Below are positions 16,977 to 17,576 of a stretch of DNA of 64,000 bases, in pieces. The notes beneath the pieces are model-generated. The model did no database searches and had not been told where the DNA came from. It saw only the letters and a program-made list of their open reading frames with translations. This DNA is from an uncultured Verrucomicrobiota bacterium (GTDB taxonomy: Bacteria; Verrucomicrobiota; Kiritimatiellia; CAIQIC01; Lenti-01): the NCBI GenBank assembly GCA_937860055.1, contig CALMBO010000029.1, forward strand, positions 425,372 to 489,371, given 5' to 3'. A program made the translations under genes and the position numbers. How positions within the stretch are numbered: position 1 is the first letter of the stretch; each line of letters begins with the position of its first letter.

Positions 16977-17576
16977 TCAGCGTTCGCGGTAGAGAACTTG
17001 CATCTGGACGTTGGTATAGATGCCCAGGAACTGCCTCATCACGTTCCGGCAGCTGGCGCAGGGATAGAGGTCCGTGTAGAGGCGGATGCAGCCTGTCGCG
17101 GAGGGATCCGGCAGGCGCGAGGCCATGTCTTCGAGGATCTTGCATTCCGTGTCGACATGGCGGGGCCAGCAGTCGGGGCCCTCCACCACGTCGGCGTGGT
17201 TCACGCACAGGACGGCGAACCGCCCCTTCTTGCGGCGGGGCGAGATGTTCGCGATCTTGGCGGCCGCCTCGCCCGACAGCCCCCCCGTTCCCTGGATGCC
17301 GCTGTGGGCGAAGTATTCCGCTTTGTCCAATCCTTCGATCTTCGCCACCGCCCAGGCGAAGTTGTTCCGCTGCTGGTTCTTGAGGGGCAGCTTCTGGCGA
17401 ACGGCCTCGATGCGCCGCAGGGCGGAATCGTCGCGGCCCGCCTGGATCAGCCGGATTTCCGGCTCCCGTTCCGGCGCCGCGGCCGGGGGGGCCTCCGCCT
17501 GGGCGAAGCCGGCCCAGAGGCCCGCCAGCCAAAGCCACCGGATCCATCCCGTCCTTCTCCGTTGCAGGTTTTCCAC
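16977..17576 (-). CDS. small secreted protein with an AID/APOBEC-like HxE...PCxxC (cytidine-deaminase-fold) motif; hypothetical
   Basis: GTG start with a GGAGG RBS 6 nt upstream, and a 14-nt gap to the upstream REC-PP2C gene. The signal peptide is MENLQRRRTGWIRWLWLAGLWAGFAQAEA. The C-terminus reads HVDTECKILEDMASRLPDPSATGCIRLYTDLYPCASCRNVMRQFL, which aligns to AID [43 protein letters not shown]. Confidence 0.6.
   Translation of the reverse strand: MENLQRRRTGWIRWLWLAGLWAGFAQAEAPPAAAPEREPEIRLIQAGRDDSALRRIEAVRQKLPLKNQQRNNFAWAVAKIEGLDKAEYFAHSGIQGTGGLSGEAAAKIANISPRRKKGRFAVLCVNHADVVEGPDCWPRHVDTECKILEDMASRLPDPSATGCIRLYTDLYPCASCRNVMRQFLGIYTNVQMQVLYRER

Follow-up and report, generated by a model that had tools for sequence, protein, structure and literature searches.

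A deaminase of the PF14424 toxin family with a predicted signal peptide as the last gene of a phosphorelay operon in Kiritimatiellia

The BURPS668_1122 clade of bacterial toxin deaminases (PF14424) was defined by Iyer et al. 2011 (PMC3239186), with an RxxDxExK motif in helix 2 as its signature, in which Asp replaces the His or Cys zinc ligand, and with a CxSC motif in helix 3. In most of its members the deaminase forms the C-terminal domain of a large RHS, CdiA, PAAR or filamentous toxin, with an Imm2, Imm3 or SUKH immunity gene. Sec/type II secretion (T2SS) is listed among the export pathways of the clade, and Sec/T2SS-exported deaminase toxins, some of them without adjacent immunity genes, were already described in the same study, the taxon list of which does not include Kiritimatiellota or Verrucomicrobiota. 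Members of the PF14424 clade were later reported to deaminate cytidine in single-stranded DNA (ssDNA) in a base-editor reporter (Huang et al. 2023). Here a 199-amino acid (aa) protein of this clade is described from a 64,000-nucleotide (nt) stretch of DNA of an uncultured Verrucomicrobiota bacterium of the class Kiritimatiellia (contig CALMBO010000029.1, positions 425,372 to 489,371), hereafter the window. Unlike most clade members, the window protein stands alone, with a signal peptide-like N-terminus as its only addition, carries a cysteine pair specific to its own subclade, has no adjacent immunity gene and is vertically inherited within a phosphorelay operon.

Two further groups of deaminases are relevant for comparison. 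DddA (BaDTF1/SCP1.201), SsdA (BaDTF2) and DddB/BaDTF3 (Pput_2613) are interbacterial DNA deaminase toxins of different clades. SCP1.201 was grouped with BURPS668_1122 by Iyer et al. (2011) on the basis of an insert and a polar residue two positions past the catalytic Glu, and some SCP1.201 members also carry a DxE motif. These toxins are domains of large proteins delivered through type VI secretion (T6SS), with adjacent cognate immunity genes and proven substrates, whereas for the window protein we infer the substrate. The secreted SNAD deaminases of animals (Krishnan et al. 2018, PMC5889660) resemble the window protein in being small, stand-alone and signal peptide-bearing, in having clade-specific cysteines and in a sub-threshold match of the window protein to the SNAD4 Pfam model. 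However, SNADs are eukaryotic relatives of AID/APOBEC of the helix-4 division with an HxE motif, so that the likeness is an analogy of layout and not family membership.

In a Pfam scan, the window protein gave a full-length match to the PF14424 “Toxin-deaminase” profile hidden Markov model, with an E value of 2e-26 and a score of 93.3 bits (cut-off 29.6), residues 58-196 aligning to profile positions 3-144 of 146. On sequence grounds, the protein is a member of the PF14424/BURPS668_1122 toxin deaminase clade. An initial annotation, made from the DNA letters, had called it a deaminase, which was right in general given the zinc-deaminase fold and the PF14424 match, and had pointed to kinship with the bacterial toxin deaminases of Iyer et al. 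(2011), which was exactly right at 93 bits on PF14424, a clade defined there. Its AID/APOBEC-like framing, however, named the wrong family, the corresponding Pfam models scoring below their gathering thresholds: APOBEC_N 18.3 bits (cut-off 25), SNAD4 20.1 (27), NAD1 19.2 (27), APOBEC2 15.6 (26.8) and APOBEC1 14.3 (27). Searching NCBIfam with the window protein gave no meaningful match, and a PDB sequence search with this single protein returned a chance match only. None of the PADLOC defence models matched the deaminase, the upstream phosphatase response regulator or the 113-aa partner protein of its paralogues described below. The deaminase identity is in itself already known, being captured by Pfam and by the NCBI name of one homologue (“deaminase domain-containing protein”). 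The features of the gene and its product, in window positions, are as follows:

17583-17587, minus strand: GGAGG ribosome-binding site, 6 nt 5' of the GTG start
16977-17576, minus strand: deaminase open reading frame (ORF), 199 aa, PF14424 (BURPS668_1122 clade); predicted mature domain approximately residues 28-199, 19 kDa, isoelectric point (pI) 8.8
17496-17576, minus strand: signal peptide-like N-terminus, residues 1-27, with four Arg, the hydrophobic stretch WIRWLWLAGLWAGFA, and AQA before EA
17169-17207, minus strand: C124 and C136 pair in the insert ahead of helix 2, invariant in 26 close homologues
17139-17162, minus strand: helix-2 motif R139-H-V-D142-T-E144-C-K146 (RxxDxExK); D142 predicted zinc ligand, E144 predicted proton shuttle
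17049-17063, minus strand: helix-3 motif P172-C173-A-S175-C176; C173 and C176 predicted zinc ligands
16955-16972, no strand assigned: perfect 18-nt GC palindrome GGGCGGGCGCGCCCGCCC, 4 nt past the deaminase stop codon

The ORF comprises 199 codons plus a stop, with the GTG start at 17574-17576. The GTG-started ORF and the GGAGG site at 17583-17587 had both been recognized initially, although the strand had not been stated, and the N- and C-terminal protein sequences quoted at that time were correct, the GTG first codon being read as Met.

The predicted active site is the feature that most clearly separates the protein from AID/APOBEC. In an alignment of 26 homologues, R139, D142, T143, E144, K146, P172, C173, S175 and C176 were invariant. 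Among 150 representatives of the wider family, R139 was found in 144, D142 in 141, E144 in 145 and K146 in 146, while C173, S175 and C176 occurred in every aligned representative; N72, H91, S92, T168 and F183 are also family-wide in this set and are found in the window protein. Position 140, in contrast, is Y, N, F, T, S or D instead of His in the 26-sequence alignment and mostly D, N or Y across the 150 representatives. The initial annotation had read an HxE motif here, but the motif is DxE: His140 was ruled out as a zinc ligand because the position is not conserved, and Asp142 takes the zinc-ligand position, as is typical of the clade. The expectation that homologues keep the zinc ligands therefore holds, provided that Asp142 stands in for His140. 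The same register was obtained in a PDB profile search, which gave sub-significant APOBEC3 matches around PCxxC only; residues 141-194 of the query aligned without gaps to residues 53-106 of APOBEC3H. In this register the zinc-binding His of APOBEC3H (His54) is matched by D142, its catalytic Glu (Glu56) by E144, and its two Cys (Cys85 and Cys88) by C173 and C176. The position-by-position alignment with AID proposed initially is thus sound over the PCxxC half, while its HxE half is two residues out of register. Read from these alignments, the predicted active site is complete and clade-typical: Asp142, Cys173 and Cys176 would bind the zinc, and Glu144 would shuttle the proton.

An AlphaFold2 model built from the 26-sequence alignment (mean predicted local distance difference test score, pLDDT, 87) has a helix at residues 50-60, strands at 73-80 and 87-91, then roughly 50 residues of insert, a helix at 143-153 that starts at the DxE motif, a strand at 161-170, a helix at 174-186 that starts at the CxxC motif and a terminal strand at 189-198, with no fifth strand. 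This reproduces the order strand, helix, strand, helix, strand suggested at first, along with the expectation of a cytidine deaminase-like structure, and the model gives the window protein the zinc-deaminase fold. Its best structural matches were APOBEC3H, APOBEC3G and AID. As the chain stops after strand 4, the modelled protein lacks helix 4, strand 5 and the C-terminal helices of AID/APOBEC. The insert of about 50 residues between strand 87-91 and helix 143-153 and the end of the chain at strand 4 are both as in the BURPS668_1122 clade.

Export of the protein is a strong prediction. The N-terminus shows the signal peptide-like features that had been noticed before, and basic residues followed by a hydrophobic stretch were found at the N-terminus of 24 of the 26 homologues; a lipobox Cys is absent from that of the window protein. 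By the AxA rule, cleavage would probably occur after AQA. The mature proteins are basic (pI ~9). Four of the six cysteines are conserved, namely C124, C136, C173 and C176, while C145 and C163 are not. The idea, raised initially as a possible refutation of the deaminase fold, that the six cysteines might form a separate disulfide-rich fold was ruled out, as two of the four conserved ones are the CxxC zinc pair. The other two, C124 and C136, lie on or beside short neighbouring strands in the AlphaFold2 model; they are confined to the small signal peptide-bearing clade and absent from all 92 long (toxin-type) representatives. The simplest reading is a C124-C136 disulfide gained by the exported clade. 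Stabilizing disulfides formed from clade-specific cysteines have been proposed for the secreted SNAD deaminases of animals (Krishnan et al. 2018).

The deaminase gene is the last of a block of minus-strand genes that encode a phosphorelay. The block and its flanking genes are as follows:

25362-30176, minus strand: 1604-aa protein with a signal peptide-like N-terminus, no Pfam match
24080-25333, minus strand: NupC-type nucleoside transporter, just upstream of the phosphorelay operon
20830-23979, minus strand: sensor histidine kinase, 1049 aa, three SBP_bac_3 (Venus-flytrap type) stretches, then HisKA-HATPase
20354-20815, minus strand: single-domain receiver protein, 153 aa
18753-20330, minus strand: REC-PAS-HisKA-HATPase kinase, 525 aa
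17590-18756, minus strand: REC plus SpoIIE/PP2C phosphatase response regulator, 388 aa (public assembly call), stop codon 13 nt before the deaminase start
14154-16805, minus strand: 883-aa protein, N-terminus hydrophobic, three GEVED domains, 171 nt past the deaminase

The sensor kinase is the first gene of the block, and its solute-binding SBP_bac_3 stretches are presumably periplasmic. Periplasmic Venus-flytrap (SBP_bac_3) domains are a feature of BvgS-type sensor kinases, which the first gene of the operon resembles in having tandem SBP_bac_3 stretches followed by HisKA-HATPase. Unlike BvgS-type proteins, the window kinase has no fused REC or HPt domain, and the relay would run through the separate REC, REC-kinase and REC-PP2C proteins. 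We know of no BvgS-type operon that ends with a deaminase. A receiver and a SpoIIE/PP2C domain were found by Pfam in the gene directly upstream of the deaminase, as annotated at the outset, and the gap between its stop codon and the GTG is 13 nt rather than the 14 nt first given. The placement at the end of a two-component/PP2C operon with no immunity gene beside it was likewise borne out: the deaminase is the last gene and an immunity-like neighbour is absent. As to the claim that this arrangement is unusual, one part stands and the other does not. Sec export without an adjacent immunity gene had already been described (Iyer et al. 2011), which makes the arrangement less unusual than claimed, whereas the literature found does not report the conserved phosphorelay setting.

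The extent of this embedding was apparent from the relatives of the protein. A first homology search gave 319 homologues at E <= 0.001, more than expected by chance. The best 120 of these are all stand-alone proteins of 166-223 aa which, besides one identical copy, share 58-77% identity, and their source metagenome genomes carry the labels Kiritimatiellia, Opitutae or Verrucomicrobiota. When cluster representatives were searched exhaustively with HMMER, 475 clusters were obtained, 12 of them close (E < 1e-30); in the remoter clusters (30-43% identity) the domain mostly forms the C-terminus of a 300-2700-aa protein, as is classical for polymorphic toxins. Gene contexts were drawn from 55 fetched loci and showed two recurring arrangements. 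In the first, found in about 25 loci including the window, the order is NupC-type transporter (usual), sensor kinase with three SBP_bac_3 stretches, single receiver, REC-PAS-kinase (often), REC-PP2C, deaminase and GEVED-domain protein (often). Over 20 non-redundant loci, the deaminase start lies at -8 to +23 nt relative to the PP2C stop, with a 4-nt start/stop overlap between the two genes in 14 of them. In a neighbour-joining tree, the phosphorelay-linked copies, the window protein included, are monophyletic. Identities between loci are 58-77% for the deaminase, 56-76% for the kinase and 67-83% for the PP2C protein, so that the deaminase orthologues diverge about as fast as the neighbouring genes. 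The GC content of the deaminase gene equals the window mean. This normal GC content, the conserved synteny and the ordinary chromosomal surroundings point to vertical inheritance of a fixed operon member rather than to a mobile toxin cassette, and on the same three grounds a genomic island or recent transfer was ruled out.

In the second arrangement, often present in the same genomes, two tandem deaminase paralogues with hydrophobic, signal peptide-like N-termini and an intact motif are found, and none of the three paralogue lineages has lost D142, E144, C173 or C176. In the tree, the upstream tandem copies make up a second clade and the downstream copies two or three further groups. In 21 loci (e.g. 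L036 9076-10868, L054 9023-10847, L008 1197-2872 and 18 others) the tandem pair is followed, in most cases within a few nt, by a conserved protein of about 113 aa without a signal peptide. The search with this partner gave 120 homologues, all of 82-140 aa, all without protein names and, where the source is labelled, from the same Kiritimatiellia-type metagenome genomes. No Pfam model matched it, and Imm2, Imm3 and SUKH were not detectable. The partner is a candidate immunity protein, judging by where it lies, how small and how tightly coupled it is, and the absence of a signal peptide. Its predicted structure is all-helical (pLDDT 94) with a likeness to generic TPR-like repeats only, and the immunity protein of SsdA is also all-helical; as modelled, the fold would speak neither for nor against an immunity role. 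Partner ORFs that were over-extended gave tblastn matches at window positions 16969-17172, which were rejected as shadow-frame artefacts of conserved deaminase DNA. No immunity gene was found at the locus or elsewhere in the window, and a homologue of the partner is absent from the other phosphorelay-linked loci as well. In locus L020 (76-1813), a deaminase of the downstream type and the partner are followed by a copy that clusters with the phosphorelay-linked clade, with no REC-PP2C gene before it; this arrangement may connect the two types of locus. Further 3' in the tandem-pair arrangement, past the partner, come a conserved secreted protein of about 323 aa and then a giant ORF, as in locus L008 (3417-12529), where the giant ORF has no Pfam match and is 12,720 aa in the public gene call.

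On balance we lean, with no great confidence, towards the view that the window protein is a single-domain, Sec-exported PF14424 zinc deaminase, co-produced with the phosphorelay, that acts as an effector or toxin on cytosine in nucleic acid. The deaminase would be made together with the phosphorelay proteins, exported unfolded by Sec, and folded outside the cytoplasm with zinc (D142, C173 and C176) and a C124-C136 disulfide. Using E144 as the proton shuttle, it would then deaminate cytosine in nucleic acid (in ssDNA, to judge from the family) and would be released as an effector or toxin against foreign cells or foreign nucleic acid. Cytosine in nucleic acid is suggested as the substrate by the toxin context of the clade, the ssDNA reporter activity of PF14424 members and the pI of ~9. 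The producer would be protected mainly by export and perhaps also in trans by the 113-aa cytoplasmic partner of the paralogues; export before folding would explain why the locus needs no immunity gene. Several points weigh against an effector or toxin. The activity evidence for PF14424 in the literature found is a reporter screen of other members, export, cleavage site and disulfide are predictions from sequence, and the role proposed for the 113-aa partner comes from its position alone, its fold being a generic helical repeat. A receptor-binding or translocation domain that would bring the protein to nucleic acid in a target cell is absent. The locus also departs from the polymorphic-toxin pattern. 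Instead of a toxin domain at the C-terminus of a larger trafficking or repeat protein there is a 199-aa protein with a signal peptide-like N-terminus only; the gene immediately downstream encodes not an immunity protein but the 883-aa GEVED protein, 171 nt on, an immunity gene being absent from the locus and the whole window; and in place of patchy, exchanged modules there are about 25 syntenic loci, monophyly, neighbour-like identity and normal GC. Fixed synteny, vertical inheritance and 58-77% identity are atypical of polymorphic toxins.

An alternative is a domesticated periplasmic enzyme acting on a small molecule (a nucleoside, nucleobase or other aminated heterocycle) or on extracellular nucleic acid, which could make or destroy the ligand of the sensor kinase, or free ammonia and uptake-ready nucleosides for nutrition. 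Such an enzyme would fit the exported-protein features, since cellular DNA or RNA is normally not there as a target in the periplasm, and the fixed place in an operon headed by a kinase with three solute-binding domains; the NupC-type transporter just upstream in most loci, with a cytosine/purine permease nearby in locus L005, the orthologue-like conservation similar to that of neighbouring genes, and the lack of an immunity gene at the locus are also in its favour. However, the protein keeps every residue that is family-wide in the toxin forms, the clade precedent is for polynucleotide substrates and the basic pI suits nucleic-acid binding. The paralogues, 50-60% identical and coupled to a cytoplasmic partner, suggest an activity that is dangerous inside the cell, and the NupC linkage may be regional synteny, as three other genes intervene in locus L007. 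We regard a domesticated enzyme of this kind as unlikely, though it is the strongest competitor to a secreted effector or toxin. Somewhat less likely still is that a nucleic-acid deaminase of the toxin family has been domesticated in Kiritimatiellia as a standing extracytoplasmic component of signalling and not as a weapon. On this view the component, encoded by the translationally coupled last gene of an operon headed by the solute-binding kinase, would act in the periplasm on an extracellular nucleobase, nucleoside or nucleic acid, and would either supply or deplete the ligand of the kinase or process extracellular DNA or RNA for uptake.

A catalytically dead protein with the deaminase fold that only binds something, perhaps as an accessory or regulator of the sensor kinase in the periplasm, is very improbable. 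An Asp where His or Cys usually binds zinc, the truncation of the fold after strand 4 and the two Perkinsus clade members predicted to be inactive by Iyer et al. (2011) could be read in this sense, but the DxE motif is normal throughout the clade and not a lesion, and PF14424 members were active in the reporter assay. In addition, neither the 26 close homologues nor the three paralogue lineages show any change at D142, E144, C173 or C176, and it is the invariance of the catalytic residues that makes an inactive binding protein unlikely. Scarcely credible, and already contradicted, is an ordinary polymorphic-toxin cassette or recently transferred toxin gene lying behind the operon by chance; the family does consist mostly of C-terminal toxin domains of 300-2700-aa proteins, but about 25 loci from different metagenome genomes share the gene order, with stop and start codons that overlap, the copies linked to the phosphorelay are monophyletic, the GC content of the window gene is at the window mean, and no mobile-element, T6SS, contact-dependent inhibition (CDI) or Rhs genes were seen among the window genes scanned. 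Just as remote is a bacterial member of the AID/APOBEC clade proper, for although APOBEC3H, APOBEC3G and AID are the best structural matches and weak signals exist (APOBEC3 sequence matches near PCxxC and sub-threshold SNAD4, NAD1 and APOBEC_N Pfam matches), all Pfam models of that clade fall below their gathering thresholds against 93 bits on PF14424, the motif is DxE and not HxE, the Trp before PC is absent, the chain stops after strand 4, and Iyer et al. (2011) placed the BURPS668_1122 clade in the C-terminal-hairpin division and not in the helix-4 division.

What is new here is the context, a deaminase as the fixed last gene of a Kiritimatiellia signalling operon with no protective gene beside it. 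The literature found on BURPS668_1122 and PF14424 makes no mention of a phosphorelay-embedded, immunity-less, stand-alone form with the Cys pair, nor of a three-paralogue system with a new small partner family. A toxin-type DNA or RNA deaminase would have been retained over long periods of evolution in the form of a small exported protein that is hard-wired to a sensory phosphorelay, and the same genomes carry, at other places, two more paralogue lineages and a dedicated small cytoplasmic partner. This would represent either a regulated arsenal of secreted toxins in a poorly studied phylum or the recruitment of a toxin domain to a physiological extracytoplasmic role. In practical terms, tools for base editing and deaminase footprinting, so far built on sister clades (DddA, SsdA and BaDTF3), might also be drawn from the compact DxE domains, which are about 170 aa long, and from their putative inhibitor.

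Some features of the surrounding DNA may be added. The palindrome GGGCGGGCGCGCCCGCCC behind the deaminase ORF, which had been correctly reported as a perfect 18-nt GC palindrome, occurs once in the window, where shuffled sequences expect 0. It would form a 7-bp GC hairpin and, as a T tract is absent, is not a canonical intrinsic terminator. A promoter and terminator scan around the deaminase gene called nothing, and an Rfam scan of the whole window matched no RNA family. The GEVED-domain protein is found in many of the orthologous loci but not in all of them, and its membership in the unit is uncertain. The NupC-type transporter lies just upstream in most loci, and in locus L005 a cytosine/purine permease (14591-15799) is found near it; the presence of a transporter beside the deaminase is suggestive but may be plain regional synteny. 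A counterpart of the 1604-aa protein (1607 aa, no Pfam match) is located upstream of the nucleoside transporter in loci L005 and L006. The wider surroundings are those of an ordinary chromosome, with V-type ATPase A and B subunits, HMG-CoA reductase, a GAF-HD protein and transporters, together with a 990-aa surface protein that contains InlB-B-repeat, lamin-tail and F5/8 type C domains. The genes of this ordinary context are located as follows:

5361-8388, minus strand: V-type ATPase A and B subunits
36002-37048, minus strand: HMG-CoA reductase
43861-46833, minus strand: 990-aa surface protein
61236-62351, plus strand: GAF-HD protein

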